This document shows, in pieces, positions 9,688-60,726 of a stretch of DNA of 64,000 nt (the stretch's first letter is position 1; each line of letters opens with the position of its first letter). Position numbers and translations under genes: made by a program. The notes below the pieces were generated by a model. It did not search any database, was not told the origin of the DNA, and saw only the letters and a program-made list of their open reading frames with translations. Location: positions 145,384 to 209,383 of the IMG/VR virus record IMGVR_UViG_3300031087_000527; one strand, written 5' to 3'. The DNA comes from a virus (Duplodnaviria > Heunggongvirae > Uroviricota > Caudoviricetes).

Positions 9688-9762
9688 GATTTTTTAGCTC
9701 AACGGGTAGAGCATTGGCGGGAGAATCCGCTGACGACGTAGGTTCGAGTCCTGCAGAAATCA
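9688..9762 (+). tRNA. tRNA-like gene with 6-nt anticodon-region loop (GGCGG-GAGAAT-CCGCT); probably a pseudo-tRNA
   Basis: Acceptor GATTTTT/AGAAATC. D arm GCTC-AACGGGTA-GAGC. T arm GTAGG-TTCGAGT-CCTGC. No encoded CCA. Confidence 0.4.
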
Positions 9763-9892
9763 CCTGTTTTATTAGGTTGCGTCCGACAACGTGAGTGGAT
9801 GTGAAAGGTAATAGCACGTTTGGAGCGAAACCAGACTTTCCTATTATCGTTTAAGAGGTGGGCCGATACAACACCTAACCTGATAAGACTAT

Positions 9893-10356: not shown

Positions 10357-11310
10357 TTAATAAACATAATCAAGTTTAGGTTCTTCATGGAAAAGAGTTT
10401 CATAGTTTCTTTCTCGTGCTGATCTCACGAAGTGTTTCATCTTGTTGTAGTTAAATGGCTCTGTATACTCACGATCTTTGATTCGTTGAGATAATAATAA
10501 AGACTCGTTTCTATCCCAATAGGTATATTCAAGAGCATTTTTGCCAGTTTTATCAACCTGGTGAACATCTATTCCTGCGTTTACCAGCATTCTCGCTTTA
10601 TCAATATCAGCGCCAGCACCAAATAAGGCATTACGCCCCCACTCATCTATTTGATTGACATTAATACCTTTCTCAATCAGAGCGGTTAATAGCTGCAGGC
10701 TTCCATCTCTTTCATTACTATCTAAATAGAAAAGCATATTCCGCCCGTATTTATCTACCTGATGAATATTGATGCCATGCTCAACCAGAAATAAGCCTTT
10801 TTCTGCATCAAGAGTGAATAAACCATTACGTTGGGTTTTGGGGTTCACCTGATGTATATCGGCTCCATATTTAATATAAAGTTGGCCCATTTCTTTTTGA
10901 TTATCCAAGCAAAAAGATAGCTCATCAAAAACAGTCTGACCTTTTTTATTTTTCTGGTTAATGTTAATACCTTTCTCTAATAAATAGGTGGAGCTTTCAA
11001 TATTGGTGCTTTGGCTAAAAAGTGCATTTTCGCCATAGATATCAACATTATTAATGTCTGCACCATTTTCTATAAAGAGTTTTATTTTGGTTAACTCATC
11101 GGTTTTAGAAAATGGTGTAAATCCACTAGTTGTTCTGACATTAAAATCAAGAGGTTCAGGTTTGCCCAATCCCCATAGCGTTCTTTTTTGGCTTCTTTTA
11201 ATAATTTCTTCAGCGCTCGCATCAAACATAAAAATCTGATCTTCTCTCAGACCAGCAAACTCTCTGGCGCGGTTATCGAATACACGCATAACATCAGTTA
11301 GACTAAACAT
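10357..11310 (-). CDS. ankyrin-repeat protein (about 317 aa; the track ORF extends to 11343)
   Basis: Minus-strand ATG preceded by AAGGAGAT. At least six 33-aa repeats with the pattern G.(D/N)(I/V)(N/H)Q.D..G.N.LF. Confidence 0.8.
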   Translation of the reverse strand: MFSLTDVMRVFDNRAREFAGLREDQIFMFDASAEEIIKRSQKRTLWGLGKPEPLDFNVRTTSGFTPFSKTDELTKIKLFIENGADINNVDIYGENALFSQSTNIESSTYLLEKGININQKNKKGQTVFDELSFCLDNQKEMGQLYIKYGADIHQVNPKTQRNGLFTLDAEKGLFLVEHGINIHQVDKYGRNMLFYLDSNERDGSLQLLTALIEKGINVNQIDEWGRNALFGAGADIDKARMLVNAGIDVHQVDKTGKNALEYTYWDRNESLLLSQRIKDREYTEPFNYNKMKHFVRSARERNYETLFHEEPKLDYVY

Positions 11311-12813: not shown

Positions 12814-14718
12814 ATGACATATTCTGAACGTCTTAATGATATTGCAATCGTAAAGCTGGACACTGAAGGCTTCTCATCACTCGATAGCCGCACTAAACGT
12901 CTGGCTTATCATCTGTCAGAAGCGGGTATGTGGGGGAAAGTGATCGGGCTGACTCAGGGATCAAGCGCTAACCTTATCGTTATTCCTGCACTAATCCATA
13001 TGTATAAACATCTTGATAAAGAAACTGAAGCTTTTAAGCAGGTTCGTGATAGTTTATTTATGCTCTTTGCGCACGGTGGTCTTTATCATACCACAACAGG
13101 TGAAAAACTGACACTGCCTCTGGATAGTGAGCAATTTGATGTATTGTGTTCTAATGTTTACTGTTCATTAGCTGCCTTATCGATTGAAATATTTCTTTTT
13201 GAGAACGATACCTATAATCTACCTTTATACCGCACCGTTCAAAAAGACGGCGTAGATGTGGTTAAGCAGTCTGGTGTTAACTTCTATGCTGGCCTTACCA
13301 CCGAGGAAGTAATTGCTTTTCGCAAAGAAGCCTACCCGAAACATGATAATGATGAGATTCCACCTTACGGATTTAACGAGAAACTCCTAAAAAATCATCT
13401 CACGGGTGAGATTAAACGAGAAGTCATCTTCGCTGATGGTCTTTATGGTCGCTATGTTAAAGAAATCATTAAAGAGCTTAAGCTTGCTCTGAACTACACT
13501 GAAAATGAAAAACAACATGCCTCTATTGAGACACTGATTACCTTCTATGAGACGGGTGATGCTGCTGATTTTGATAAGCACTGTGTAGCGTGGACGCAAG
13601 ATCAGGATAGTTCGATTTATTTCGTAAATGGCTTGATTGAATCTTATAAAGATCCGCTAGGTGTGGCGTGTAACTTTGAGAGTTTGGTTGCGTTTAAAAA
13701 TCCAGCACAGACAGCTAAAGTGAAGCGTATCATTGATAATATCCAGTGGTTTGAGGATAATCTCCCGTTTGATAAGCGCTTTAAGAAAGATAAGGCTGTA
13801 GGGCTATCTGCGAGTTCTATCAATGTTATTTCTATGGCTGGAGAAACCTCTCCTGTGCTGCCTTTAGGGATTAACTTGCCTAACAGCGACTGGATTCGTA
13901 AAAAGTTTGGTTCTAAATCCGTTACGTTGTCTAACGTGGATTCCTCACGTAGTAGCTATGATGTGCCATTAACCAAAGCCTTGTATCTGGATAAATATCA
14001 GGATCTGATTAAGCGTTATGGCAATGAGACGGGCATCCTTCATACGGACTTGCATGAGATTGCTGGTCATGGTTCGGGCAAAGTGCTGGACGGCGTTAAC
14101 AGTGATGTTCTGTCTACGTATTACTCTGTCATTGAGGAATGCCGTGCGGATCTTGTGGCGCTTTACTATATCCCGGATGAGAAGCTAAAAGAGATTGGTG
14201 TGTTTGCTGAGGATGTCAATGTTCGCGATGCGGCAATGGCTAAGTATGTAGCGTATTTCACTAATGGCGCTATCGGTCAGTTGCGCCGTGTGCGTTTTGG
14301 CGCTGATCTGACACAAGCTCACTTCAGAAACCGCCAGGTTATCTCTACATGGTTGCTTGAAAAAGCGAAGCCTGAACAGATGGCGATGGTTGTGAAGGAT
14401 GGTCAGTATTTCATTGAAGTGAATGATCTGGATGGTGTTCGCGTTCTGGTTGGTCAGTTGCTGGCAGAGGTTCAGCGTATTAAATCGGAAGGCGATTTTA
14501 ACGCGGCTAAAGCCCTCGTAGAGACGTATGGCACCAAAGTTAATAGGTTGGTTCATAAAGAGGTGTTGGAGCGTGTGAGTGGCTTAGGATTGGCGACAGT
14601 GGTAGGCTTCATGACGCCGATTCTGACACCTAACGGCGATGATATTGTTATTGAATATCAGGAAGACTTCCTGACTCAGCAGATTGAGTTGTTTGAGAAA
14701 TATTTCCTGAAGAAATAA
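12814..14718 (+). CDS. dipeptidyl-peptidase III-like zinc metallopeptidase (MEROPS M49 family), 634 aa
   Basis: AAAGGAGAT SD. HEIAGHGSGK and EECRAD lie about 40 aa apart, matching the M49 signature pair HELLGHGSGK / EECRAE. Confidence 0.85.
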   Translation: MTYSERLNDIAIVKLDTEGFSSLDSRTKRLAYHLSEAGMWGKVIGLTQGSSANLIVIPALIHMYKHLDKETEAFKQVRDSLFMLFAHGGLYHTTTGEKLTLPLDSEQFDVLCSNVYCSLAALSIEIFLFENDTYNLPLYRTVQKDGVDVVKQSGVNFYAGLTTEEVIAFRKEAYPKHDNDEIPPYGFNEKLLKNHLTGEIKREVIFADGLYGRYVKEIIKELKLALNYTENEKQHASIETLITFYETGDAADFDKHCVAWTQDQDSSIYFVNGLIESYKDPLGVACNFESLVAFKNPAQTAKVKRIIDNIQWFEDNLPFDKRFKKDKAVGLSASSINVISMAGETSPVLPLGINLPNSDWIRKKFGSKSVTLSNVDSSRSSYDVPLTKALYLDKYQDLIKRYGNETGILHTDLHEIAGHGSGKVLDGVNSDVLSTYYSVIEECRADLVALYYIPDEKLKEIGVFAEDVNVRDAAMAKYVAYFTNGAIGQLRRVRFGADLTQAHFRNRQVISTWLLEKAKPEQMAMVVKDGQYFIEVNDLDGVRVLVGQLLAEVQRIKSEGDFNAAKALVETYGTKVNRLVHKEVLERVSGLGLATVVGFMTPILTPNGDDIVIEYQEDFLTQQIELFEKYFLKK

Positions 14719-27430: not shown

Positions 27431-28426
27431 ATGTCACATTTTACCGTTATTGTTGCTGGTGATGTTAATCTTAAGAAAGCATTAGCGCCTTTCGAGGAAC
27501 AGTCGTCCGATCCTGAAAACTCACCTTATTTTGAATTCGAAAATAAGAGTGAGTCTTCTCAAGAGCGAGAGGATTACAAAAACAAAACTACGCAAATCGT
27601 TGAGCTGGATGGTGTAAAATACCATCGTTCTGATGATGTTGTTCGCAGATTTGAAAAGTCTATCAAAAGCGAGAGTTCACCTTTCGGTGAGACAGTGCTT
27701 GAACTTCCTGAAGGTGCTAGACTTTATGAGGGTGCAGTTTCAGAAATCTATCCAACATTTGAAAGCTATCTTAGAGATTATTGTGGTTATGGATATTCAG
27801 AAGAACTTGATGCTTATGGATATTGGCATAACCCTAATGCAAAATGGGATTGGTATCAGGTAGGCGGTCGCTGGACAGGATATTTTAAAGGTAAACTGGG
27901 TGTGGGTGGAGAACAAGGCCGTCCTGGTCTGATGACGGAAGCTGCTGAGGCAGGTCGCTATGATGTTATCCGTTTGAAAGATATTGACTTTGAAGGTATG
28001 GAGGCTGAGGCTATTGCTGAGGCAAACGCAACCTATGATAAGATTGAGTCTATTTTGAAAGGCCGTCAATATCCGTCATGGACAGAGATCAGGGAAAAGC
28101 ATGGTGCGGATATTGATGCAGCAAGAAATGAATATCATAATCATCCGGTTGTTAAGGATTTTAATGAAGCTCGTTTTGATTTTTGGGGTGATTTTTATGA
28201 AATCTTTGGCAATAGCCGTGAGGAATATGTTGAGAGACAGCGTAAATCAATCATCACGCCGTTTGCTTTCCTGAAGGATGGTGTATGGTCTGAAAAGGGA
28301 CAAATGGGCTGGTTTGGTATGGCGATGGATGAAAAAGCTCAGAAAGACTGGAATGATGAGTTCTACAATATGCTGCGTGGCCTTCCTGAAGACACCCTGT
28401 TAACAGCAGTTGACTGTCATATCTAA
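27431..28426 (+). CDS. hypothetical protein (331 aa), family sharing the C-terminal motif ...TAVDCHI with 32567..33061
   Basis: AGGAGAG SD. Paralogous N-terminus (MSHFTVIVAG) and C-terminus (FAFLKDGVWS...LTAVDCHI). Confidence 0.85.
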   Translation: MSHFTVIVAGDVNLKKALAPFEEQSSDPENSPYFEFENKSESSQEREDYKNKTTQIVELDGVKYHRSDDVVRRFEKSIKSESSPFGETVLELPEGARLYEGAVSEIYPTFESYLRDYCGYGYSEELDAYGYWHNPNAKWDWYQVGGRWTGYFKGKLGVGGEQGRPGLMTEAAEAGRYDVIRLKDIDFEGMEAEAIAEANATYDKIESILKGRQYPSWTEIREKHGADIDAARNEYHNHPVVKDFNEARFDFWGDFYEIFGNSREEYVERQRKSIITPFAFLKDGVWSEKGQMGWFGMAMDEKAQKDWNDEFYNMLRGLPEDTLLTAVDCHI

Positions 28427-28549: not shown

Positions 28550-29740
28550 ATGGGATCATTTAATACCACGTGCGCTATCAGTCGGGCTACAATTCTTCAA
28601 GGCAATAATGTGCGTTTGTTTTATGTTGTATCAGAAGGCAAGTCAATGGGCAAAGGCTGTGAGTGCTATCCTTGGGATAACTTTAAGCTTATTGGCGGCG
28701 TAGGTATTCCTGCGAAATATGCAGATTACAATAACTATGAATTTGACGAAAACTCTTTGTTTGCCCGATATATTCATGATCAGATTAAGTCTGAATACTC
28801 AGAGAATGTCTCTGTTGAAGGTAAGGAGTACAATCCCTATCATGATCACATGGATGTCAATATCAAGGATTTAACATGGCAGAAGATTCAGGACATGATT
28901 CATAGTGGAAGATTGTTCCTTAATGGTTGTCAAGGAGAAAAATGTTTCGTAGCGTCCTTTGCTATTCATGAATCTGTTTATCAGGTAATGATTGAATCCA
29001 AAGAAAGTATCGATGAAAAGCTTAAGGAAGTAATGGGGAGCTATAACGATATGGTTGGCTTCAGAGAGGCTGTTGAGAAAAATAAGGCACGATTAGCGGC
29101 AGATTTTGAATCTGGAAAGATTACTTATGAACAGCAAACGGATATTGCTAATCAAATAGCGTGTGAAAGCATGAAGCAGTTAAACGCAAACAAGATCAAG
29201 TTTGGTATGGCTGGTCAGGCAACATCAAACGTAGGCGGCCCACAGCTTCACAGAGACATCATTGCTTTTGCTAAAAGTAATGGATTTGATAAAGCTGAAA
29301 AAGAAATATTTCGTGCCTTGCTGGAAACCGAAAATATGCTGAACACAATGTATGTTCAAAATGTTATGATTCGTCCGGTTATGACTTCAGGACAGTGTGG
29401 TGAGCCAAAGGACAGTGCTATTTTTTTGCGCAAGTTGGCTAACGCTGTAGAGAATATCAAGAGTAAATGGCACGATGAGTATGGCGTAAAGGTTGATGTA
29501 TGCAAAGAGTCTAAAGAGTGGCAACAGGTTAAGCTATCAGATATTAAAACTGAATGGGAAGAAACTTTAGACATTGAAGACGAGGAATATGCCTACCTTT
29601 GTGAGATCATTGAAGGTAAAGATAAACTAATTATCTCTCCAGAAGAATGGGATAACGGTGAGTTTTTCTATGATGTGCTTGCTGATGTAATCGGTGAAAG
29701 TCTGGATACCAGTATTGAACTTCATATCTTAAACCAGTAA
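28550..29740 (+). CDS. hypothetical protein (396 aa)
   Basis: GAGGAT SD. Terminator 29754..29784. Confidence 0.85.
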   Translation: MGSFNTTCAISRATILQGNNVRLFYVVSEGKSMGKGCECYPWDNFKLIGGVGIPAKYADYNNYEFDENSLFARYIHDQIKSEYSENVSVEGKEYNPYHDHMDVNIKDLTWQKIQDMIHSGRLFLNGCQGEKCFVASFAIHESVYQVMIESKESIDEKLKEVMGSYNDMVGFREAVEKNKARLAADFESGKITYEQQTDIANQIACESMKQLNANKIKFGMAGQATSNVGGPQLHRDIIAFAKSNGFDKAEKEIFRALLETENMLNTMYVQNVMIRPVMTSGQCGEPKDSAIFLRKLANAVENIKSKWHDEYGVKVDVCKESKEWQQVKLSDIKTEWEETLDIEDEEYAYLCEIIEGKDKLIISPEEWDNGEFFYDVLADVIGESLDTSIELHILNQ

Positions 29741-29836
29741 ATCATTATCTAAAAAAGAGAGCGCCTTGCAGGGCGCTTTTTTATACATTAAGTATCGTGC
29801 TTTTTTCTTTCATGTGGTGAAACAGTTAAAATTATA

Positions 29837-29850
29837 GCAACGAACGCAAC
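29837..29850. repeat. left inverted repeat GCAACGAACGCAAC flanking tnpB
   Basis: Exact reverse complement of GTTGCGTTCGTTGC at 31409..31422. Confidence 0.6.
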
Positions 29851-29916
29851 ATATTAAACATGTTTGATTTTTCTTCTTTTTTATTATAGTATCCTTTTAT
29901 AAATTACGGGGATATT

Positions 29917-31377
29917 ATGACGCAGACTTACTTTATTAAACACGATTATGACAGAACAGTTCAGCCGTTCTGGAATGAACAGTGTCTTAAAATATCTCAA
30001 AACCTTTTTCTCCCCTGCACCGAAAATAATATCCCTAATTTTAAAACTCATTACCTCTCTTCTTTGATCCGTAAGCTTACACCCGTTCATTCTTATCACT
30101 TTCCTTTATTCTTTAAATCTTATGTTATGTCTGCGCCTGATATTGTGGTTAAAGCCGTAAGGAAAGTGCGCTTTTATTTTACCTCGACTGAACAAAGACT
30201 TAAATATGAGCAAATGATGATGGTTGCTCGCAGAGCCTACAATCTTGCGGTTGATATGTGTAATAACAGAGAATTTATCGATGAGCAGGGGAAACCTGTT
30301 GATATCAGAATTCCCATCAGAGATAAAGTAAAAAAAGAAAGTGCTGAAAATAATTATGTTTTTGACACTAATGTCTGCGATCAGGCTGTCAGGATAGCTA
30401 AGTCTGAGTTTATCACTCTCTGTAAAAATAACAAAAAGAAGAAGAATACAACATTATTCACGAGTTTCTCACGACTAGGCTTCAAAAGCCGTAAAGACAA
30501 AAAACAGACCTTTTCCCATCCCCGGATGGGAAAAGAGGGTTCCGTCTGTATAAAATCGTTGGGAAGCATCAGGCTGACGGAAAAGCTGCCTGATGAATGC
30601 TATGGCAAAAATGTTGAGGTAACAATGGAGTATGGCAGATGGTTCATCTGCGTCCAGAAAAATATAGAGATAAAAGGAAACCGTTTAGATTGTTCCGAAA
30701 GCCAAGGGCCAAATAAAACGGTTTCTGAAAAAGAAGTGAAAGTGATTGCTCTTGATCCGGGAAGCAGGACGTTTTTAACAGGATTCAGCGAGAAAGAAGT
30801 TATCGTTTATGGTAAGGATTATTCTATAAAATGCTTACTACCATTGGCAAAGAAGATGCGTGAGCTGTATTCTTTGCGTGAGAGGTTAAAGAAGCATGAG
30901 CTATACAGAAAGGAAAGCCTGGATAATCCGCAGTGGATAAACGATACGTTTAGGCATATAGAAAACAGCCTGAATAGGCTGTCCTGTAAGCGTCAGGATC
31001 TTGTTAATCATCTGCACAGGACTGTAGTTTATGATATAGTGATGAGCTACGATGTGATTTATCTTCCTGATTTCGAAACCAAGTCTATGGTAAAGACTAA
31101 GGGGAGAAGAATAGGCCGTAAAGCTGTTCATAACATGCTTTCTCTGAGTCATTATATTTTTAAGGAATTTCTGCTGTGGACAGCAAAGAAATACGGTAAG
31201 GAAGTCATTATCGTTAACGAGAGTTATACGAGTAAAACCCAAAGCTGGAACGGAGTGGTAAATGAAAAGCTGGGATCATCGAGGTTGATGAAAGACGGCA
31301 AAAGAATAATAAACAGAGATATCAATGGTGCAAGGAATATTTACCTGAAGCACATATCTCAGTTAACTAACATTTAG
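29917..31377 (+). CDS. tnpB: TnpB-like RuvC nuclease (IS200/IS605 OrfB family), zinc-finger cysteines absent; alternative start 30127 gives 416 aa
   Basis: N-terminal VRKVRFYFTSTEQ (KFRLYPT.EQ-like). RuvC-I VIALDPGSRTF. RuvC-II YLPDFETKSM. RuvC-III NRDINGARNI. Where CxxC...CxxC is expected the sequence reads TSKTQSWNG...MKDGKRI with no cysteine. Confidence 0.85.
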   Translation: MTQTYFIKHDYDRTVQPFWNEQCLKISQNLFLPCTENNIPNFKTHYLSSLIRKLTPVHSYHFPLFFKSYVMSAPDIVVKAVRKVRFYFTSTEQRLKYEQMMMVARRAYNLAVDMCNNREFIDEQGKPVDIRIPIRDKVKKESAENNYVFDTNVCDQAVRIAKSEFITLCKNNKKKKNTTLFTSFSRLGFKSRKDKKQTFSHPRMGKEGSVCIKSLGSIRLTEKLPDECYGKNVEVTMEYGRWFICVQKNIEIKGNRLDCSESQGPNKTVSEKEVKVIALDPGSRTFLTGFSEKEVIVYGKDYSIKCLLPLAKKMRELYSLRERLKKHELYRKESLDNPQWINDTFRHIENSLNRLSCKRQDLVNHLHRTVVYDIVMSYDVIYLPDFETKSMVKTKGRRIGRKAVHNMLSLSHYIFKEFLLWTAKKYGKEVIIVNESYTSKTQSWNGVVNEKLGSSRLMKDGKRIINRDINGARNIYLKHISQLTNI

Positions 31378-31437
31378 GTGCTTCGCCTTAGCCGGAACTG
31401 CGAATGCTGTTGCGTTCGTTGCGGGTTTAATGAAGAG
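31375..31437 (+). repeat. tnpB 3'-flanking conserved element (right-end or omega-RNA-like), copy 1
   Basis: Starts at the tnpB stop codon: TAGGTGCTTCGCCTTAGCCGGAACTGCGAATGCTGTTGCGTTCGTTGCGGGTTTAATGAAGAG. Contains the right inverted repeat. Related copies at 43312 and 37870. Confidence 0.6.
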
Positions 31438-31486
31438 TCAGGTAAAAGTAAAGATGATGGCAGCTATAATCAACAAAGTCGTGCAA

Positions 31487-31522
31487 TAAAAAAGCCTCCT
31501 ATGGAGGCCTTTATTTGTTTTG
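31487..31522. terminator. bidirectional rho-independent terminator (AAAAAGCCTCCTATGGAGGCCTTTATTTGTTTT)
   Basis: Hairpin flanked by an A-run and a T-run, between the convergent tnpB unit and the SPFH gene. Confidence 0.6.
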
Positions 31523-31529
31523 ATAAGGA

Positions 31530-32432
31530 TTAGTTATCGAGAGAGATAACGGGCATAGTAGGCCTGTCAGAAACGATAACTACCATGAGTTTTTCCACAA
31601 TGCGTTTCTTCTCAGCATCCTCAAAAGACACACCGATCTCACTTTGGATGTTAGCAATAGCATCCTTCACGGTTAATACAGCAGCATCAACAATGGCGCG
31701 GCGACTCTCTGCCATTTTTTCAGCTTGCTGACGCATCAGCATAGGCTGAGCGATTTCTGGCGCATAAGCGATCTTAGTAATGCTGGCGCTGATAATAACC
31801 ACACCGATTTCTTTTAAACGTGTATTAATGCTTTCAATCAGCTTGGTTGAAAACGAACCTAAGTTGTTGCTCAGGGTTTCTTCATCAGCCACATTGCTGT
31901 CAAATGCATGTTGAGTAACAATCGTTCTCAGTTCACTCTCGCTGGCGTTGCGAATAAAATCATCTGGCTTCTCAGCATTATAATGGAACGGAGCAGCCTG
32001 TTCAACACGGTAGTTGACCACCATAGAGACATTCAAGGGAATACCCTTTTTGTCATTGATTTTGGTTTCCTGAGTTTCAAAGGTATTAATCTTGGTGCTG
32101 ATTTTCTCAAAGGAGAAGAAAGGATTGACGAATGTAACACCTTCACCCATAAGTGTGCCTCGGTATTTACCTAAGAAGCTGGCAACCACTTTCTGATTGG
32201 GGGAGATAATGATAAAGCTGTTAAAGAAGAAAATAGCAGCAATGATGCCAGAAATAAAAGCCGTAGAACCATACAGAATAGAGATTTCTTCACGGAATTC
32301 ATTATAGCCATAAGGCACCTGAACCTGAGCGTGCATAACAGCGTAGACGGTAATCGCAATGAAGATAAGTGTCAGCACAACGCCAAGATAGGCTGCACTC
32401 AGATTGGTTTTTTCATCTTTCAAAATATTCAT
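31530..32432 (-). CDS. SPFH/band-7 (stomatin/prohibitin-like) membrane protein
   Basis: Minus-strand ATG preceded by GGAG. N-terminal TM helix, then an SPFH-like core (...VASFLGKYRGTLMGEGVTFVNPFF...NVSMVVNYRV...). Confidence 0.8.
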   Translation of the reverse strand: MNILKDEKTNLSAAYLGVVLTLIFIAITVYAVMHAQVQVPYGYNEFREEISILYGSTAFISGIIAAIFFFNSFIIISPNQKVVASFLGKYRGTLMGEGVTFVNPFFSFEKISTKINTFETQETKINDKKGIPLNVSMVVNYRVEQAAPFHYNAEKPDDFIRNASESELRTIVTQHAFDSNVADEETLSNNLGSFSTKLIESINTRLKEIGVVIISASITKIAYAPEIAQPMLMRQQAEKMAESRRAIVDAAVLTVKDAIANIQSEIGVSFEDAEKKRIVEKLMVVIVSDRPTMPVISLDN

Positions 32433-32566
32433 TATGGCAAAGCTCCTGATTAGTAAATAGAGACAGCATTATAGCGACTCTTATGGTGCTTTTCAATGTA
32501 AATATGACTAAGAAACTTGATAAAGTGAAGAAAATGCGTGAAAATAAAATAAAAAAGGAAAACGAT

Positions 32567-33061
32567 ATGCATTATGCTCTAATGGTAGTTTTAGAAAAAG
32601 ACATTGTAAAACAAATGGAAAAGTTCAAAGAAGCTGAGGATAATCCTGAATCAAAATGGGATAACTATGGATTAGGTCGCCGTTTCAGAAGCTACTTCTC
32701 TAAAAAGGATGGCACAAACTTTTGCGTATCTAAGGTCTGCGAAATCGACATAGAAAAAATGAAGGCGGAAATGATAGAAGTCGCTAAGAAAGAGTATGGC
32801 ATTTTTGAGGTGATAAACTTTGAAAGCGAAGAAAGAAAGCGAGAAGCTATTATTAATATGTTAGGTTCTTACATGACAGAAGAAGATTATATCAGCCAGC
32901 GATCAAGAGAGTTTTTAACACCTTATGCTTTCCTTCGTAGCGGAGAGTGGTATGATGCTAAACGCTCAGGATCGCATGAGAAGTGGATAGAAGATTTTCA
33001 AAAAATATTTGAAGACCTTCCTCCTGAAACTGAGTTGGCGGTTTTTGACTGTCATATTTAA
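32567..33061 (+). CDS. hypothetical protein (164 aa), paralogue of 27431..28426 (C-terminal ...LAVFDCHI)
   Basis: AAAGGAAAAC SD before the ATG at 32567. The N-terminus MHYALMVVLEKD aligns with MSHFTVIVAGDV. Confidence 0.7.
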   Translation: MHYALMVVLEKDIVKQMEKFKEAEDNPESKWDNYGLGRRFRSYFSKKDGTNFCVSKVCEIDIEKMKAEMIEVAKKEYGIFEVINFESEERKREAIINMLGSYMTEEDYISQRSREFLTPYAFLRSGEWYDAKRSGSHEKWIEDFQKIFEDLPPETELAVFDCHI

Positions 33062-43118: not shown

Positions 43119-43259
43119 AAACAAGCAAACTAACACGATGATCTCAAATAATGCTTGAACCACAAAAAGGCGATTGCTATACTTATTTCACTGGTTAGGG
43201 CGCACGCCCATGTTTTTTAAAAGAAGATTGAAGCAACTAACACAACAAAATGCGGTAAT

Positions 43260-43288
43260 TTAATATAAAATTTGCAATTTTATATTAA
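43260..43288. repeat. perfect 29-bp palindrome TTAATATAAAATTTGCAATTTTATATTAA
   Basis: 13-bp arms around TGCA, 23 nt upstream of tnpB-flank element copy 3. Confidence 0.7.
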
Positions 43289-43311
43289 ATATATTATATC
43301 TTTTACTACAA

Positions 43312-43383
43312 TAGGTGCTTGGCCTTAATCGGAACTGCGATTTTAACAGGTTTTGTTGTGATCGTTGCGATTTAAATCAAGAG
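43312..43383 (+). repeat. solo copy of the tnpB-flank element (no tnpB), leader of a small basic protein gene
   Basis: TAGGTGCTTGGCCTTAATCGGAACTGCGATTTTAACAGGTTTTGTTGTGATCGTTGCGATTTAAATCAAGAG is collinear with 31375..31437, including the TAGGTGCTT start and the GTTG.G..CGTTGCG core. Confidence 0.6.
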
Positions 43384-43401
43384 ATAAATAAGGACGATAA
43401 A

Positions 43402-43551
43402 ATGTTAAACTCTTCTTCTATCCGCGTAGAGAAATTTGAGAAATCGAAGAAAATGGCTCGCAAAGAAGTCGTAGCTAAGCGAGATAATAAAAAATTGAAT
43501 AAGGTTGTTCGCGGTCGTCGTGAAGAACTAGAGCTTGAAGATGTTTATTAA
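43402..43551 (+). CDS. small basic protein (49 aa), paralogue of 37922..38071
   Basis: AAGGACGAT SD. MLNSSSIRVEKFEKSKKMARKEVVAKRDNKKLNKVVRGRREELELEDVY. Terminator GGTCGCTTAGCGGCC plus T-run. Confidence 0.6.
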   Translation: MLNSSSIRVEKFEKSKKMARKEVVAKRDNKKLNKVVRGRREELELEDVY

Positions 43552-43642
43552 AATAAAGGTCGCTTAGCGGCCTTTTTTATTGCTTTGGATTTCTGAAATC
43601 TGTATAATGACAACCATGTTAATGAACTCTATGGTGATTATG

Positions 43643-44266
43643 ATGGAAAAAGAACAATTTGGTGTTAGCCCTTCACATTGGGCAGGACTCAGTGAAGAAG
43701 AGCGCGAGCTTTATCGCATTATTCGTCCTATGCGCACTTGCAATTATAGTGTGACCGTCGAGCTTCATAATGTTAAGCGTGAGCTTGCGCGTCAAGCTGA
43801 GCAGGCGGAGTTGGATGGTGGCGTGTTTAACCTGAATCCTGATTTCCAGCGCGGACATGTATGGTCCCTTGAAAAACAGATTGGCTATGTAGAGAACCTG
43901 CTTCGGGGAACGGCTCCAATTGAAATCAAGTTCAACTGTGCTAAGTTTCATGATTTTAACGCTGAGGCGACGGGAATGCATGGCTATGATATGGTCTGTG
44001 TTGATGGCCTGCAGCGTTTAACCGCCGTTGTGGATTTCATGGATGGCAAGTTCAAGCTTTTTGATGGGCGATATGATGAAACATCACTGCTTAAAACAGC
44101 CTTTTCACCACGCCGTAAGCATCTCCTGTTCCAGATCTATGATGTGAAAGACTATGGTGATTTGATTCAGTTCTATCTGGATCTTAACACAGGCGGTGTG
44201 GTTCATGAAGAAAGTGAGCTTAATCGAGTGAGAAAGCTTCAACAGGATTATCAGTCAAGTAAATAA
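43643..44266 (+). CDS. DUF262 / ParB-like nuclease-domain protein
   Basis: TATAAT upstream. Motifs PDFQRGHVW and DGLQRLTA match the DUF262 (GmrSD N-terminal, ParB-like) signature. Confidence 0.75.
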   Translation: MEKEQFGVSPSHWAGLSEEERELYRIIRPMRTCNYSVTVELHNVKRELARQAEQAELDGGVFNLNPDFQRGHVWSLEKQIGYVENLLRGTAPIEIKFNCAKFHDFNAEATGMHGYDMVCVDGLQRLTAVVDFMDGKFKLFDGRYDETSLLKTAFSPRRKHLLFQIYDVKDYGDLIQFYLDLNTGGVVHEESELNRVRKLQQDYQSSK

Positions 44267-55181: not shown

Positions 55182-56288
55182 ATGCTTGCATTTGGTAAAA
55201 AGACAATGTTCAAAGAACAGGCTGTGGCTACGAGTAGAGCGAAAATAAAACGTAATTTTTTGAAGAATTTTTGCGTTGGGACTATGGTTTTAGTTTGTGG
55301 ACTGGTCTCTTATGATGTTGGTGTTACAGCATCAAATATTAACCATATAAATAATATGGCTGAATATAAGATACAAAATCAGAAATCTCTGGATAATTAC
55401 AGTACCTTTAAAGATCGAGTGATGGCAGTTCCTTATTCGGATGCGCAGTTCAAAAAAGATTTAACCACATTTGAATATATGTATGGTTATAAAGGCTCGG
55501 ATAGCCCCGTTTATAAAAAAATAATAGAGGATGAGAAAAAAAGTTTAAACGTATTATTATATCAAAACTTAGCTAAGGATAATGCTAACAATTTCTATTC
55601 TGATTTATACACTATGACTAAAAGTTATACATTAAAAGATTATATAAATAGAAACAGTGTCGGTCATAAAAAATTTACAGATGATGTCTCAAAGGTGCAA
55701 GGTAAGCATGAAATAGCAGCCATCAAGTATGAAGATGTATTTAATATGAATCAGAAAGAAAGGATTGCTAATATGGCATCCCAAACACTAGGATATTATT
55801 ATAGTAATATCGATAATAAAATGTATCAAAACTTCAGAAATTTACTGGTCGAAAAAGGTTTTAGTGCTAATGCTTATTTTCCTGATAAGGAAAAAGCAGG
55901 AAAATACCATGACCTTTATTATGATTATTTGTATAACTATGAGATGTCTTCTGAAAAGTTGGCTATAAGACAGGATTTCTATGATGATGTTTATAAAAAT
56001 AATCAAACTATCAGGCAATATTATGAGCAAGGCGATTTCAAAAAACTGCGAGAGCTATTTAAAATAGGTAATGGTTTTGCTCAAATAGCAATAACTGATT
56101 ATATCAATGACACAAAAGAAAATAGCAATTTGGGAGAGCCTTTTTATCATCGTTTAGCTCAGCACTTCGAAATGCATCCTGATCTTAAAAAACCCGCTAA
56201 GGTTTACGAAGAGTATACTGGTTCAACTTCTCCAGAAAAGAAAGGCCTCTATGACAGAAGTATTGATACATTTTTGTATATGCCATGA
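55182..56288 (+). CDS. signal-anchored paralogue 1 of 6 (368 aa): basic N-terminus, one TM helix, about 300-aa extracytoplasmic domain
   Basis: AAGGAGACAAAT SD. Motifs VPYSDAQFKKDL, YY..GD.KKLRELFKIGNGF and YTGS.SPEK shared with the next five ORFs. Confidence 0.85.
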   Translation: MLAFGKKTMFKEQAVATSRAKIKRNFLKNFCVGTMVLVCGLVSYDVGVTASNINHINNMAEYKIQNQKSLDNYSTFKDRVMAVPYSDAQFKKDLTTFEYMYGYKGSDSPVYKKIIEDEKKSLNVLLYQNLAKDNANNFYSDLYTMTKSYTLKDYINRNSVGHKKFTDDVSKVQGKHEIAAIKYEDVFNMNQKERIANMASQTLGYYYSNIDNKMYQNFRNLLVEKGFSANAYFPDKEKAGKYHDLYYDYLYNYEMSSEKLAIRQDFYDDVYKNNQTIRQYYEQGDFKKLRELFKIGNGFAQIAITDYINDTKENSNLGEPFYHRLAQHFEMHPDLKKPAKVYEEYTGSTSPEKKGLYDRSIDTFLYMP

Positions 56289-56410
56289 AGATATTTTTTT
56301 CTATTAAATTCTTAAAGAACCACTCGTTGGTTCTTTTTGTTTACATAATAAATTTGGTATATTATCAGCAAAAATAGTATTATTACACTATGATAAAATG
56401 AGGACTATCT

Positions 56411-57502
56411 ATGCTAAAGTTTGGCAATAAAACACTATTCAATCAAAAAATCGCTAGGTCAGAAAAATCTGTTATAAAAAGAAAAACATGGAAGCATATT
56501 GCTGCAGGCGTACTCTGCTTATTTGGAGGAATGGCTACCTATGATGTGGCTGTGACGGCGTCAAACATTAGTCATGTTAATAAAATGGTTGAATACAAGA
56601 TAGCGGACAATGCCTCACTTGATAACTACAGTTCTTTTAAGGCCAGAGTGATGGCTGTACCTTATTCGGATGCGCAGTTCAAAAAAGATTTGAAGACCTT
56701 TGAGTATATATATGGTTACAAAGGCAATGAGAATGTTGTTTTCAAACACTATATGTGGCGTGATCGCGCAGTTGGAAGTAATGTTGAATTGAATGCTATG
56801 CTTGTGATGAATGTTAGGTTTGATAATCCTGGGGAGCTTTATAAAGACATCTATAACTTTACAAAAGGGCGTGATGTTAAGGAGATGACTGATGGAAGAG
56901 AAAATGATTTTTACGGAAAAATTAATGATATTTATAACCAGCATATACCATTTAAAAAGGTTTTTAATAATGCTCAGATGATGAAGTCGATAAGAGCAAA
57001 CATGTCGCTAGGATCTTCTTATAGCTATATTCATAGTGAAAGTAAAATGTATGACAATCTTAGCCAGTTGCTGGTTGAACAGGGGTTTAATCCTCAATCC
57101 TATTTTGCCAGTAAAGAAGATGTCAGAAAAGTGGAATCTATTATTGGTCTTTCTACTAGTGCTGAAAATAAAGTTATATTTGAAAACTATGCTCATCAGG
57201 TAGACAAAAATAACAGAGATTTACGAGCTTATTACGAAAAAGGGGATCTGAAAAAGTTAAGAGAGCTATTCAAAATAGGAAATGGTTTCTCCAAAGTAGT
57301 GGTTTCTGATTATATTGATGGCATGAAAAAAGATTACAATATAGGATATTCTTTTTCATCTTATCTATATCAGAATGAAAGTTTGGGTACAATTAATTTC
57401 CTGAAGCCTGCTGAGTTGTATTCTAAATATACTGGCTCATTAACACCAGAAAAAGAAAAAATATATAAAAAAGATATATTGGATATTTGGTATAGACCAT
57501 AA
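56411..57502 (+). CDS. signal-anchored paralogue 2 of 6 (363 aa)
   Basis: Closest to paralogue 1. A stretch longer than 30 nt, CCTTATTCGGATGCGCAGTTCAAAAAAGATTT, is identical at the DNA level. Confidence 0.85.
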   Translation: MLKFGNKTLFNQKIARSEKSVIKRKTWKHIAAGVLCLFGGMATYDVAVTASNISHVNKMVEYKIADNASLDNYSSFKARVMAVPYSDAQFKKDLKTFEYIYGYKGNENVVFKHYMWRDRAVGSNVELNAMLVMNVRFDNPGELYKDIYNFTKGRDVKEMTDGRENDFYGKINDIYNQHIPFKKVFNNAQMMKSIRANMSLGSSYSYIHSESKMYDNLSQLLVEQGFNPQSYFASKEDVRKVESIIGLSTSAENKVIFENYAHQVDKNNRDLRAYYEKGDLKKLRELFKIGNGFSKVVVSDYIDGMKKDYNIGYSFSSYLYQNESLGTINFLKPAELYSKYTGSLTPEKEKIYKKDILDIWYRP

Positions 57503-57511
57503 GAGGCTAAA

Positions 57512-58585
57512 ATGTTAAAAACTAAAAATATTTTTTATAGAACTATCAGCTATGCTAAAACAAATAGCAGTAAAATCAATAAAGCGTCTCTCCTTAAGAG
57601 AGTTGCTTTAGGTGTCTCACTTTCTATTGCTGCTATAGCCTCTTGGGATGTGGCGGTTAACCTGACCAATATTAAACATGTTGCTGACATGGTTGACTAT
57701 AAAGTGTATAACAACGCTCAGACAAACAACTATTCAAATTTTAAGTCTAAAATGGAGGCTGTTCCTTATTCAGATGAGGATTTTAACCGAGATCTAAACA
57801 TATTTAAGTTAACCTATATTGATGGTAATAAATCTTTTAGAAATACAATAAACTATGGCGATGGTCTTGATACACTTTTACTGCTTAAATACACTTACAC
57901 TGATCCTGTTGGTTATTTAAAAGAGATGTCTTTTGTGAATCAGGAGTCTGTTGATAATCTAAATAATCACAACCCAAGATCAAAACTTAACGCAGAAAAA
58001 ATACAGCGTATTACAGATAAATATAAAATAAAAAGCGATGGGTTTTCTTACGCTGACGATTTACAAGTAAAGAAGCGTGCTAAATCTATATTTGTTGTGA
58101 TGAATAGTGATTTAAATATTGCTGCTGATAATACGTATGCGCCTATTTATGGCAACTTTGAAAGATTATTAAGCGAACATGATATAAACAAAAACATGTA
58201 TTTATGGAGATCAGCTTATATCAAAATGAAGTTTGGAAAAATAAGCGCAAAAGAATATCAGAGTGAACAAGATAAAATAGATAGAGGCGTTGCATTAAAT
58301 ATTGAAACATTAAAGCAATACTATAAGAATGGCGATTTGGATAAGCTAAGGGGAGTATTCCGTTTTGGTAATGCTTTTACTTCTGTAGCAGTAGATCAAT
58401 CTCTAAAAGAAAATGCGCATATAGGCATCCCCATATCTGCTCTGCTTATGACATATTTTGATAATGACTATGATTATTACGATACTATGCAAGAAGGTGC
58501 TAAGGCATATCAGAAGATGACTGGAACACTAACGCCTGAAAAAGAATCGCTTTACGGTAAAGACGATTTTATTCTATGGCACTAA
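57512..58585 (+). CDS. signal-anchored paralogue 3 of 6 (357 aa)
   Basis: 9-nt spacer from the previous gene. VPYSDEDF, YYKNGDLDKLRGVFRFGNAF, TGTLTPEK. Confidence 0.85.
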   Translation: MLKTKNIFYRTISYAKTNSSKINKASLLKRVALGVSLSIAAIASWDVAVNLTNIKHVADMVDYKVYNNAQTNNYSNFKSKMEAVPYSDEDFNRDLNIFKLTYIDGNKSFRNTINYGDGLDTLLLLKYTYTDPVGYLKEMSFVNQESVDNLNNHNPRSKLNAEKIQRITDKYKIKSDGFSYADDLQVKKRAKSIFVVMNSDLNIAADNTYAPIYGNFERLLSEHDINKNMYLWRSAYIKMKFGKISAKEYQSEQDKIDRGVALNIETLKQYYKNGDLDKLRGVFRFGNAFTSVAVDQSLKENAHIGIPISALLMTYFDNDYDYYDTMQEGAKAYQKMTGTLTPEKESLYGKDDFILWH

Positions 58586-58600
58586 ATAAGGGTTAAATAA

Positions 58601-59653
58601 ATGCTTAAAGTAAAAAGTATATTTAATAATGATATAGCCTATAAAGAGAGATCGGCTAAGGTCAGTAAGACTTCTGTTGTTAAAAAAGTAATAGTAGGCG
58701 CAATGTTTACCGTGGCAGGCATTGCTGCATGTGATGTAGCTATATTAAGTGGTGATGTTGCGAAAGTAAATACAGTGGCAAATTACAAAGTAAATCATTA
58801 TAAATCGTTGTCTTCGTATAGCACGTTTAAAGAAAAAATAGACGCTGTTCCTTATACAGATGCGCAGTTTAATCAGGATTTAAAGGTTCTTGATGCTATC
58901 TATAATCATCAGGACAACGTTATGTATAACAAAGTAATGAGCAGCGCTAGTGGGGCTTATGGCTCTTTTTTAGGTATGATGGTGTTAGGAAGTGGTAAGT
59001 ATATTGATCAGGCTGCCACGTATAATAAGCTGCTCCCCTTAACAAAAGATATGCCTGAAAAGGAACTGAAAGATGTAAATCCTGAAATATATAGAGCATT
59101 TGCCTTGGATGAGGCTGTTAAAAAGGATAAAGTAAAGTGGGCTATGAATTCGCTAGCTTCTCTTAAAATGAGTGTGAGCTATGCCTCTTTTGGTGAGGGT
59201 ATAGATTTGAATAAAGGGCTTTATGAAAACATGGAGCGTTATTTCAAAGAAAAAGGATTTGGTGAAAATATTCTTTTCATATCGCCTGACCTTGCTCTTT
59301 CACGAGGTGATAGAAGTAAAGATATTCAAAATTTTTATACGAAGGCAAAAGAATCCACTCAGAAAGCGAATACTGAACTTGAAAGTATTTACCGTTCTGG
59401 TGATAAGGCGAAGCTGAAAGAGCTGCTCCAGATGGCTTATGCTTTCCAATATCGCATAGCGGGAGAGATAGCTCAGAAAACATATAATGTAGGCTGGGTT
59501 GAGCCGCCTCTTTCATTTCAGCTTATGGGAAATGCTGAAAATGGTTATGGTTTAGCGAAAAGTATAAAATGGATTGCTCAGAAAAATGGCGATTATACGC
59601 CTGAAAACGCTATATATTATGATAATGATTTCTTTTTTTCGTTATATTACTAA
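58601..59653 (+). CDS. signal-anchored paralogue 4 of 6 (350 aa)
   Basis: 15-nt spacer. VPYTDAQF, YRSGDKAKLKELLQMAYAF, GDYTPEN. Confidence 0.85.
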   Translation: MLKVKSIFNNDIAYKERSAKVSKTSVVKKVIVGAMFTVAGIAACDVAILSGDVAKVNTVANYKVNHYKSLSSYSTFKEKIDAVPYTDAQFNQDLKVLDAIYNHQDNVMYNKVMSSASGAYGSFLGMMVLGSGKYIDQAATYNKLLPLTKDMPEKELKDVNPEIYRAFALDEAVKKDKVKWAMNSLASLKMSVSYASFGEGIDLNKGLYENMERYFKEKGFGENILFISPDLALSRGDRSKDIQNFYTKAKESTQKANTELESIYRSGDKAKLKELLQMAYAFQYRIAGEIAQKTYNVGWVEPPLSFQLMGNAENGYGLAKSIKWIAQKNGDYTPENAIYYDNDFFFSLYY

Positions 59654-59664
59654 GGAAATAAGAT

Positions 59665-60717
59665 ATGTTAAAAACAAAAGGTATGTTTGAGCAAAAATAT
59701 ACATATTCTAATGCATCAAAAAATAAAATCGCAAAGGCTTCATTGTTAAAACGTGTTGCTTTAGGTGTTGGCTTGACTATTGCGGCAATTACATCATGGG
59801 ATTTGGCTCTAATCAATACATATGCTGTTAAAATAAATGACTTAGCAGACTATAAGGTGAGTCATTATGCTGGCTTAACAAGCTATGATAACTTTAAAAA
59901 ACAGATAGAGACTGTGCCTTATTCGGATGCGCAATTTGACTATGATTTAAAGACATTAGACTATCTCTATGGGCATAAAGATAACCTCATGTATAGAAAA
60001 ATGATTAGCTACTCAAATAGTGGATATGGTTCTTTTTTAGTCTCTGCTATAGTTAATAACTTTGAACATAAAGATCCACATAAGACATATAAAAAACTAT
60101 TACAAGAAACGGCAAGTATGCCTAATACAAAAGAAATACCATCTAATCTTTATTCTTTTACCAGTAGAGATATAACCCCTGAGAATAATAAAGATATCGC
60201 AAGAGTAAGGATGTCAAGCCTTTTCAAGTTGGGTAATAGTTATGGCTCTTTTGGTCCGAGTATAACTATAAACAGAGCAATATATGATAATATGAATACG
60301 TATTTAAAAGAGAAAGGATATAAAGAGAATCTGTTATTTATCGATCCTAATCTTTCTTATAATCGAGAAGAGCTGACGAAAACAAAATCACAGTCAATTA
60401 AATATCTTGAAGAAATAAGGCATTCTCAAGATAAAGCAAATGCTGAGATAGAAAAGTATTATCGATCAGGAGATTTGGTAAAACTTAAGGAGCTATTTAA
60501 AATGGCTCATGCTTTCACTTACAATATCGTTGAACAGCCTATGTCTTATATAAATAAAAATGCGCCATCCTCAAACCTAATATCTTCTATATTATTCGAC
60601 AGGATATATAATGGATCTGTAATTTACGATAGTGCTGGTTTTATTTCTAAGGTTAAAGGTGAGTATACTCCTGAGAAGTCTGTCTATTATGAAAACCCCT
60701 TTGGCCTTTATTACTGA
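59665..60717 (+). CDS. signal-anchored paralogue 5 of 6 (350 aa)
   Basis: 11-nt spacer. VPYSDAQF, YYRSGDLVKLKELFKMAHAF, GEYTPEK. Confidence 0.85.
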   Translation: MLKTKGMFEQKYTYSNASKNKIAKASLLKRVALGVGLTIAAITSWDLALINTYAVKINDLADYKVSHYAGLTSYDNFKKQIETVPYSDAQFDYDLKTLDYLYGHKDNLMYRKMISYSNSGYGSFLVSAIVNNFEHKDPHKTYKKLLQETASMPNTKEIPSNLYSFTSRDITPENNKDIARVRMSSLFKLGNSYGSFGPSITINRAIYDNMNTYLKEKGYKENLLFIDPNLSYNREELTKTKSQSIKYLEEIRHSQDKANAEIEKYYRSGDLVKLKELFKMAHAFTYNIVEQPMSYINKNAPSSNLISSILFDRIYNGSVIYDSAGFISKVKGEYTPEKSVYYENPFGLYY

Positions 60718-60726
60718 GGAAATACA

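Follow-up and report, generated by a model that had tools for sequence, protein, structure and literature searches.

A tnpA-less insertion element, probably of the IS607 family, that encodes a cysteine-free Fanzor2-like TnpB in phage DNA

We have found that a 64,000-nucleotide stretch of DNA from a tailed phage (Caudoviricetes; positions 145,384 to 209,383 of IMG/VR record IMGVR_UViG_3300031087_000527, referred to here as the window) carries, at 29826-31437 on its plus strand, a 1612-bp insertion element that consists of a left end, a tnpB gene and a right end. The properties of its ends, together with the autonomous relatives that share them, suggest that it is a tnpA-less, non-autonomous member of the IS607 family that colonised jumbo phages, a reading to which we assign a probability of about 0.8. 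The TnpB it encodes is related to Fanzor2 and belongs to a clade that has dispensed with the cysteines of the zinc finger, and its right end is likely to be the scaffold of a guide RNA. An original prediction, made from the letters of the window alone, had described a complete tnpB-only insertion element at 29837-31437 whose RuvC nuclease had lost its zinc finger.

Results

The limits of the element follow from comparison of its copies with one another and from the collinearity of the window with empty alleles once the element is removed. Metagenomic phage contigs yielded close homologs (59-95% amino-acid identity), and a two-anchor scan for the right-end pattern located more. Similarity between copies starts at 29826 and stops at 31437; at no fewer than ten independent phage sites it runs from just after AACAG to a sharp stop at ...TTTAATGAAGAG, with unrelated flanks, and all ten of ten independent phage insertions are preceded by AACAG. 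A 95%-identical copy (locus L001, 9705-11944) was found in an unrelated sequence context, where it interrupts a DUF6012 gene and leaves fragments of 78 aa upstream and 160 aa downstream. In two syntenic phages that are 98% identical over 5.9 kb (L003 and L010) the element sits at different places and points in opposite directions, and L003 retains the empty site for the L010 insertion, ...GGGAATAACAG^TGTGATC... (^ marks a junction here and below), in which AACAG is already present on the 5' side. L023 and L024 (neighbouring gene 91-93% identical) lack the element at the site that it occupies in the window, and the window without 29826-31437 is collinear with both; in the closest relative, L025 (96%), the site is occupied and the left end is identical to the window's. 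There is no target-site duplication (TSD) in the empty/occupied pairs, whether L003/L010 or the window against L023 and L024. The original prediction of a complete tnpB-only insertion element is thus borne out by its limits, by the empty alleles and by the other insertion sites, and the search for further insertions that it proposed yielded at least ten phage sites as well as copies in bacteria. Its end at 31437 is exactly the right boundary; its start at 29837 falls 11 nt inside the true left boundary.

It was the comparison of L003 with L010, together with homologs of the neighbouring gene, that supplied the empty sites. No match came from GenBank phages, searched for near-identical DNA of the unit, from plasmids, searched with it in distant mode, or from IMG/VR, scanned for the right-end tail and for the neighbouring gene; an exact-protein look-up of the window TnpB returned no record, and the first four loci shared no flanks that could have led to empty sites. 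We also note that the downstream DUF6012 open reading frame (ORF) of L001 was called from a GTG that lies within the right end.

We find that the ends of the element are shared with autonomous relatives in bacteria. A scan of one genome per species for the signature of the right arm (Table 1) identified 45 loci, more than 25 of them in a single Endozoicomonas metagenome-assembled genome (MAG) and the rest in Oceanospirillales, Psychromonas and three Vibrio species, and many are complete copies with both tnpA and tnpB (L021, L027, L030 and the Endozoicomonas copies share ends). More than 30 bacterial copies entered the comparison, and autonomous ones with these ends occur in marine Gammaproteobacteria, namely in Vibrio (V. 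zhanjiangensis among others), Psychromonas and Endozoicomonas. The Vibrio breoganii copy (L021) has the same left junction, GAGAACAG^TTGATC..., and a homologous right end, ...TTGCGTTCGTTGCGATTTAAATCAAGAG^, and its tnpA, frameshifted in this copy, specifies a MerR-type helix-turn-helix (HTH) and a serine-recombinase catalytic domain. Left junctions in bacteria end in CAG in 13 of 13 cases and in ACAG in 12 of 13, and in all copies AG stands both at the end of the left flank (ACAG^) and at the end of the element (GAAGAG^ or CAAGAG^). IS607 ends are known to have no terminal inverted repeat (TIR) and no TSD, to contain multiple subterminal motifs that are bound cooperatively by TnpA, and to undergo exchange at a shared dinucleotide (PMC6188088). 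A tblastn search of the window found no tnpA, which is also absent from the phage copies examined; as relatives with the same ends possess the gene, we file the window copy as a non-autonomous derivative.

The original prediction had compared the 3' element with IS200/IS605 right ends, and on that view the unit would be a tnpB-only (IS1341-like) element moved as single-stranded DNA by a Y1 transposase that acts through subterminal hairpins. Insertion 3' of a conserved pentanucleotide without duplication is indeed also IS200/IS605 behaviour (PMC13565253), and the protein gives weak matches to Pfam OrfB_IS605 and HTH_OrfB_IS605, both below cutoff. However, every tnpA found with these ends encodes a serine recombinase with an N-terminal MerR-type HTH, and it is for this reason that we assign the element to the IS607 type. 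In addition, the arms are inverted relative to each other, whereas Y1 needs similar hairpins on the same strand; no left-end hairpin comparable to the right-end fold was seen; and the nearest relatives of the protein are Fanzor2 and IS607 TnpBs. We consider an IS200/IS605 identity highly improbable.

In the autonomous relatives tnpA and tnpB overlap by ~250 nt, the first ~80-130 codons of tnpB being read in another frame from DNA that also encodes the catalytic domain of TnpA (L021 3990-4400; L022, from Vibrio phage F88, 2850-3250; L027; L030; Endozoicomonas). For example, ATGCAAGAG... reads as MQEL in tnpB while, one base off, TATGCAAGAGTTAGC reads as YARVS in tnpA, and in F88 both overlapping frames are open though the HTH part of tnpA is missing. 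On L011 the tnpB element is preceded, at a distance of 4.4 kb and on the other strand, by a coding region (1157-1627) for a 156-aa homolog of IS607-like serine recombinases, 33% identical to L021 TnpA, that could be a phage-borne source of TnpA.

The two arms of the element are 15 nt long, fully complementary, and situated 11 and 15 nt inside the element ends. The 14-bp inverted repeats said to bracket the gene are therefore real and one base longer than described, but they are subterminal and do not mark the ends of the element; the termini, TTAAAATTATA and TTTAATGAAGAG, are not inverted repeats of each other. The window holds four matches to the 14-mer with up to two mismatches, where chance would give 0.23, and the arms co-vary between copies, position 6 being G:C in some and T:A in L003 and L010, while F88 has AAAGAACGCAAA with TTTGCGTTCTTT. 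A left-arm homolog, GCAACAAACGCAACA, lies ~12 nt inside the end in bacterial relatives, and L021 has a second, inverted copy of the motif in its left end and a third within tnpA. The arms are best read as presumed binding motifs for the serine recombinase TnpA, since autonomous relatives carry several copies in their left ends and the arrangement fits published IS607 ends. The left arm is degenerate in L002, L005 and L018, as would be expected if no TnpA acts on those copies, in which the right arm and tnpB are intact. An otherwise complete copy in the Endozoicomonas MAG (L053) has the left-arm motif as a tandem triplet, GCAACAAATGCAACAAACGCAACAAACGCAACA. We also note a right end on the reverse complement of L012 (37-98) that has the standard anchors, GGTGCTTCGCC on the 5' side and TTTAATGAAGAG on the 3' side, around a wholly different interior with no arm motif; the contig is too short to show the rest of the element.

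Perfect 15-nt complementarity and compensatory changes between copies might also point to pairing of the arms with each other over 1.5 kb, in RNA or single-stranded DNA, for RNase III-type processing or for an intron-like excision from host transcripts, and removal at the RNA level would help at L001, where a gene is split. Yet the element's own promoter lies downstream of the left arm, which has decayed in the three copies named above while the right arm and tnpB persist, and the right arm is already engaged in the local hairpin P3 described below. In autonomous relatives the left end holds the motif several times, in direct and in inverted orientation, which is the pattern of recombinase sites (PMC6188088), and an Rfam search of 29000-32500 matched neither an intron nor any other family, returning sub-threshold noise only. 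Long-range pairing of this kind thus seems to us scarcely probable.

The left end also contains a promoter-like pair of hexamers, TTGATT (29864-29869) and TAGTAT (29887-29892), separated by 17 nt and conserved across loci as TTGATA-N17-TAGAAT, and a ribosome-binding site (RBS), GGGGA, at 29908-29912. A sigma-70 scan did not list this promoter, the window version having 8 of 12 matches and so falling under the threshold; its activity is therefore proposed from conservation.

The 486-aa product of tnpB matches NCBIfam guided_TnpB (NF040570) over residues 90-475 with 107.4 bits against a cutoff of 100, Pfam Cas12f1-like_TNB with 46.2 bits against a cutoff of 26.3 (5e-12), and phrog_506 (1e-30). 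An AlphaFold2 model built from 67 homologs has a mean predicted local distance difference test (pLDDT) score of 87.3 and a predicted template modelling (pTM) score of 0.83, and its best match in the PDB is the ternary complex of mimivirus Fanzor2, 9b0l (Foldseek E 8e-22), followed by ISFba1 TnpB, ISDra2 TnpB and Cas12f. Fanzor2 is also recovered at the sequence level by a family profile, the match extending over the full length and taking in the N-terminal extension (E 7e-34). The profile search that had been suggested as a check therefore agrees with the fold in identifying a TnpB, the hit to guided_TnpB being above cutoff and those to the OrfB_IS605 profiles below it. Purifying selection acts on the phage copies of tnpB, with a ratio of nonsynonymous to synonymous substitution rates (dN/dS) of 0.10-0.23, and we count this in favour of the main reading.

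All of the strings quoted in the original prediction are present in the protein (ALDPGSRTF at aa 278, PDFETKSM at 384, TSKTQSWNG at 438, MKDGKRI at 458 and RDINGARNI at 467), and the RuvC-I and RuvC-III residues to which they point, D280 and D468, are invariant in an alignment (A1) of 67 sequences. This does not hold for RuvC-II, as the glutamate of the quoted motif, E388 (DFETK), is R, F, Q, S, K or A in several homologs. E435 (NESYTS), which is likewise invariant in 67 of 67 sequences, aligns with the NE motif of Fanzor2, just as D280 and D468 align with its DPG and DRD motifs, and the RuvC-II catalytic residue is very probably this relocated E435. Within the DPG of RuvC-I, D280 and G282 are invariant and P281 nearly so, and E435 stands six residues before Q442, which aligns with the first cysteine of Fanzor2 and of relatives that retain the set of four zinc-finger cysteines (C4). 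A DPG together with an alternative glutamate six residues before the first CxxC is the published signature of pro-Fanzors (Yoon et al. 2023, PMC10711439; review PMC13565253), which the window protein thus carries. The N-terminal 80 residues are conserved (W19 and P33 are invariant, N20 nearly so, among the 67 sequences), are modelled with high confidence and match Fanzor2, and we reject on these grounds the alternative start at 30127 that had been considered for a shorter TnpB.

At the zinc-finger positions the window protein has no cysteine whatsoever, as the original prediction had noted, but this state is not special to the gene. None of the 120 nearest homologs has the C4 set, isolated single cysteines being the most that is seen, and an exhaustive search of 1.84 billion cluster representatives showed that the nearest ~50 have 0-2 cysteines in the segment; among 111 parsed representatives 61 have none and 21 have four or five. 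Relatives that bear the C4 set (TSKTC-GSCG...KCPECG...RDVNGA) appear only from about E 1e-31 outward. On the evidence of these homologs, the absence of the cysteines, shared by ~60 diverse clusters at 50% identity, is a clade-wide character and not a peculiarity of the window gene. The segment that replaces the finger has conserved residues of its own (W444, G446, L452 and G453), and structure prediction, proposed as a check on whether the fold survives, models it confidently (pLDDT ~86-92). Loss of the C4 finger in "some large TnpB branches", as well as virus-specific rearranged branches, has already been published (Altae-Tran et al., PMC10691335); the present clade could not be mapped onto the branch names of that study. 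The regular expression with which Yoon et al. defined pro-Fanzors demanded CxxC...CxxC (PMC10711439) and would therefore exclude it, so that published searches for bacterial relatives of Fanzor would have missed this cysteine-free clade.

Position, fold and covariation together suggest that the 61-nt right end is the likely scaffold of a guide RNA. RNAalifold, applied to 13 non-redundant right ends, independently predicts a nested structure of P1 (CUUCG/UGAAG), P2 (ARCC/GGYU; AGCC/GGUU in the window) and an apical hairpin, P3, that includes the right arm, and 12 of 14 right ends fold alone into the same architecture. In P1 and P2 97.9% of cells are paired, with three compensatory pairs; one or two of 500 column shuffles equal this, and slid registers reach at most 57%. 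The 5' strand of P3 is variable, and the register in which it pairs with the conserved arm differs between right ends. Because the distant right ends of F88 and L021 had a mis-registered 5' strand in the MAFFT alignment, we relied on single-sequence folds and on a covariance model, built from the same 13 right ends, that recovers unused ones from bacteria and from F88 at E<=1e-8. The model finds two copies in the window, 31377-31437 (88 bits) and 43314-43383 (72 bits), and none in the empty alleles. Only 2 nt (AG) separate the end of the structure from the right boundary, the place at which an omega-RNA would pass from scaffold to guide. The conserved element of ~65 nt that had been placed at the stop codon, in the position of an omega-RNA, accordingly proves to be 61 nt long, and the covariance folding that had been proposed for the 3' region gives the P1-P2-P3 structure with covariation. 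Flanks at the guide position differ at every insertion site, and in the window a terminator-like hairpin (31494-31508) lies downstream of the predicted guide. In several copies an AT-rich, promoter-like spacer of 13-95 nt separates the stop codon from the right end.

A further hit of the covariance model, at 11005-11079 (17 bits, E 0.06; it begins GGTGCTTTGGC and ends ATAAAGAG), is probably due to chance, as it has no arm motif and lies inside a minus-strand ORF. We also note that in all loci the right end can be read without a stop from the GTG of TAGGTGCTT (in the window, 31378-31533 and 43315-43551); the predicted peptide, ..NCECCCVRCGFNEE.., is rich in cysteine, looks like a CxxCG zinc-finger knuckle and is probably a by-product of the conserved arm.

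The second hit of the model belongs to what we call site 2, which was flagged by two extra arm matches and by a repeat, at 89% identity, of the 29 nt running from the stop codon. Here a left arm and a right end are separated by a 64-nt AT-rich spacer that is homologous to the promoter region of the left end, an arrangement like that of the element but with no ORF, and on this basis site 2 is a miniature non-autonomous derivative, 13.5 kb from tnpB. Its right end is of a different subtype from that at 31377-31437, one that is common to L013 and to bacterial copies, and the changes that it carries are compensatory, not random (CUUG/CAAG and AAUC/GAUU). There is no ACAG on its left side. ORF-less miniatures of ~190 bp also occur at different sites in two bacterial genomes (L028 and L041). 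Next to site 2 on its downstream side is a gene (43580-44266) whose match to the N-terminal domain of the GmrSD restriction endonuclease falls below threshold (31.7 bits, cutoff 33.2).

The original prediction had also raised the possibility that the gene is a domesticated derivative, and TnpB and its RNA might in that case serve the phage in regulation or in RNA-guided attack on host DNA or rival phages, and no longer in transposon maintenance, with site 2 as a second, stand-alone guide-RNA gene. It is in keeping with such a role that tnpA is absent from the phage copies examined, that the purifying selection on tnpB is strong, that site 2 has a promoter-like spacer directly before a right end with compensatory changes, and that similar AT-rich spacers stand between the stop codon and the right end in several phage copies. 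Nevertheless, the element occupies a different site in almost every phage lineage, with at least ten insertion sites known, and is polymorphic at the site in the window, which is the behaviour of a mobile parasite; its ends are intact, and its guides are the local flanks, as in ordinary TnpB elements. Neither candidate guide could be linked to a target beyond its own flank, although no systematic target search was made. A nuclease-dead repressor of the TldR type would be expected neither to keep its catalytic residues invariant nor to be so variable and polymorphic in location, and with the catalytic residues intact a TldR-like role is unlikely. We regard domestication as improbable.

The phage to which the window belongs is large and tRNA-rich, with 12 tRNA genes, and its genes are distantly related to those of the ~355-kb jumbo phages of the GAP32/Rak2 type. 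The element is inserted between convergent genes, which encode a 396-aa protein of unknown function and a Band_7/SPFH protein. On either side of it lie ORFs of 331 aa (27431-28426) and 192 aa (32483-33061) whose similar C-termini, ...LPEDTLLTAVDCHI and ...LPPETELAVFDCHI, suggest that they are paralogs; neither has a Pfam match. Further afield we note, among the 12 clustered tRNA genes, one (9688-9764) to which ARAGORN assigns a four-base anticodon (agaa), along with duplicates of tRNA-Phe(gaa) and of tRNA-Arg(tct); a 634-aa ORF (12814-14718) that matches peptidase family M49, dipeptidyl-peptidase III (E 1e-55); and six consecutive same-strand ORFs of similar length, 350-368 aa, in unusually AT-rich DNA (55182-61830; GC 0.29-0.35) that may be a tandem array of paralogs, two of which were searched and had no Pfam match. 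Two of the other contigs that bear the element, L017 (Ga0308161_1000030) and P0005, are 443 kb and 539 kb long, suggesting either hosts in the megaphage range or concatenated assemblies.

Table 1. Positions in the window of the element, its parts and its miniature copy
Feature	Position	Strand	Basis or remark
AACAG target motif, presumed target-adjacent motif (TAM)	29821..29825	+	flank, outside the element
Left end, 91 bp: 11-nt terminus TTAAAATTATA, left arm, promoter-like hexamers, RBS	29826..29916	+	sequence and conservation across loci
Left arm GCAACGAACGCAACA, subterminal motif	29837..29851	+	perfect inverted repeat with 31408-31422
tnpB, 486 aa	29917..31377	+	profile matches, alignment, AlphaFold2 model, dN/dS
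Predicted catalytic residues	D280 30754-30756; E435 31219-31221; D468 31318-31320	+	invariant columns
Right end, candidate omega-RNA scaffold, 61 nt	31377..31437	+	RNAalifold, pair counts, covariance model
Right arm TGTTGCGTTCGTTGC, subterminal motif	31408..31422	+	also 3' strand of hairpin P3
Predicted guide segment TCAGGTAAAAGTAAAGATGA	31438..31457	+	position, by analogy with characterised TnpB systems
Site 2, tnpB-less miniature copy with left end and right end	43221..43383	+	arm matches, covariance model (72 bits)
Site 2 left arm GCAACTAACACAACA	43233-43247	+	
Site 2 right end	43314-43383	+	
Site 2 right arm TGTTGTGATCGTTGC	43354-43368	+	
Site 2 candidate guide	43384-43403	+	

Discussion

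We present evidence for a system of a known kind, whose secondary interest lies in the Fanzor2 affinity of its nuclease, a compact candidate scaffold, an orphan miniature copy and the potential for homing from phage to phage. What had appeared to be an oddity of one gene becomes a sizeable and defined lineage of Fanzor2-like TnpBs, with the DPG motif and the relocated glutamate, that dispense with zinc coordination and travel on a carrier of the IS607 type.

It is possible to outline how such an element might behave. TnpA supplied in trans would move it to new (A)ACAG sites, binding subterminal motifs of the GCAACGAACGCAAC type and exchanging strands at the AG that is shared by the ACAG target and the GAAGAG end. 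A transcript of tnpB could run from the left-end promoter through the right end and into the flank, and an omega-RNA would then comprise the 61-nt P1-P2-P3 scaffold and ~16-20 nt of flank from 31438. The complex of TnpB and this RNA may recognise AACAG and a match to the guide, a pairing that would occur only in an unoccupied allele, whether in a sister genome or in a co-infecting phage, and cleavage would be carried out by a RuvC site that comprises D280, D468 and the relocated glutamate E435. Were the break then repaired by recombination with the occupied copy, the element might be restored or spread (homing). The former zinc ribbon may be kept as a cysteine-free beta-structure around W444, G446, L452 and G453. 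We infer the role of AACAG as TAM, the formation of an omega-RNA and, as in characterised TnpB systems, the cleavage of unoccupied alleles and recombinational copying. An extension of this scheme, in which RNA-guided homing and marker exclusion would operate between co-infecting jumbo phages through cleavage of unoccupied alleles with AACAG in competitor genomes, site 2 would act in trans as a stand-alone guide gene, and a compact guide of ~61 nt would serve a zinc-independent Fanzor2-like nuclease, is put forward tentatively, and we think it rather unlikely to hold.

Several observations weigh against the IS607 assignment or against the scheme that we attach to it. The terminal dinucleotide is AG and not the GG that is typical of IS607, and since the window contains no tnpA, mobilisation in trans is something that we infer. 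The empty alleles L023 and L024 lack AACAG, have a different guide segment, and show TG and TA at the position of the terminal dinucleotide; homing into these alleles is therefore not predicted, and they cannot show that the ancestral target had AACAG. As for the right end, its folding energy is only modestly better than that of shuffled sequences (z -0.3 to -2.4), and its covariation rests on few independent events. At 61 nt the candidate scaffold is much shorter than the guide RNAs of ISXfa1 (~150 nt) and ISFba1 (187 nt), and if the scaffold extended into the 3' coding region we might expect a trace there, but synonymous-site conservation in that region is no higher than the average of the gene. 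With no signal in the coding region, the RNA is either unusually compact or not fully defined, and the functional scaffold may indeed be unusually short, at ~61 nt. Synonymous conservation does peak at aa 1-25 and 237-270, but these are variable regions in which only identical residues were counted, and the peaks are probably artefacts of that counting. We had also considered whether the different bases at the TAM position of L023 and L024 might reflect escape from targeting, an idea that we have withdrawn because the whole intergenic spacer has diverged.

Should the scaffold consist of the 61-nt right end and no more, it would rank among the most compact guide RNAs of TnpB and Fanzor systems and be useful for engineering. 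The tnpA-less copies that spread among jumbo phages, polymorphic as they are at single sites, could provide a natural system in which to study TnpB homing between co-infecting phages.

Like IS607, IS1535, ISXfa1 and ISFba1, the element has no TSD, no true TIRs and short subterminal motifs at both ends, and it shares with the IS607 family autonomous relatives in which a serine-recombinase tnpA precedes tnpB and a guide RNA that would derive from the right end; the dinucleotide present in both target and end is compatible with exchange of the IS607 kind. It differs from that family in that the phage copies lack tnpA, in that this dinucleotide is AG within (A)ACAG rather than GG, in the out-of-frame overlap of ~250 nt between tnpB and tnpA in its autonomous relatives, and in its short non-coding right end, which does not match RAGATH-18, the scaffold of the characterised IS607 TnpB ISFba1 (187 nt), even at E<=10. 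With the Fanzor2 of Acanthamoeba polyphaga mimivirus (9b0l) and with pro-Fanzors the protein has in common the DPG of RuvC-I, the relocated glutamate and a RuvC-III of the DRDxN type; those proteins, however, retain the C4 CxxC...CxxC, where the window clade has replacements of the QSWN and K..K type and a conserved tryptophan, and the host of the window element is a bacteriophage and not a eukaryotic virus. ISDra2 TnpB, from the IS200/IS605 family, is an RNA-guided RuvC nuclease encoded beside a right-end guide RNA, as we propose for the window protein; its TAM is the target motif, so that it is aimed at the empty site, the logic of homing and maintenance. In ISDra2, however, the transposase is of the Y1 class, the RuvC-II glutamate stands at its canonical position, a zinc finger is present, and scaffold and coding region overlap. 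The branches of TnpB without zinc finger described by Altae-Tran et al. also show clade-wide loss of the C4 set with a rearranged catalytic site that is kept, and some of them are enriched in viruses; unlike RIIIr-4, in which RuvC-III is rearranged, the window clade has a rearranged RuvC-II and a normal RDxNGA motif. Lastly, site 2, L028 and L041 resemble small non-autonomous derivatives of IS elements, namely miniature inverted-repeat transposable elements (MITEs) and the palindrome-associated transposable elements (PATEs) of IS200/IS605, in being short units of left end and right end without ORFs, and site 2 differs from these in that a promoter-like spacer would feed its right-end RNA and in the lack of a left ACAG.

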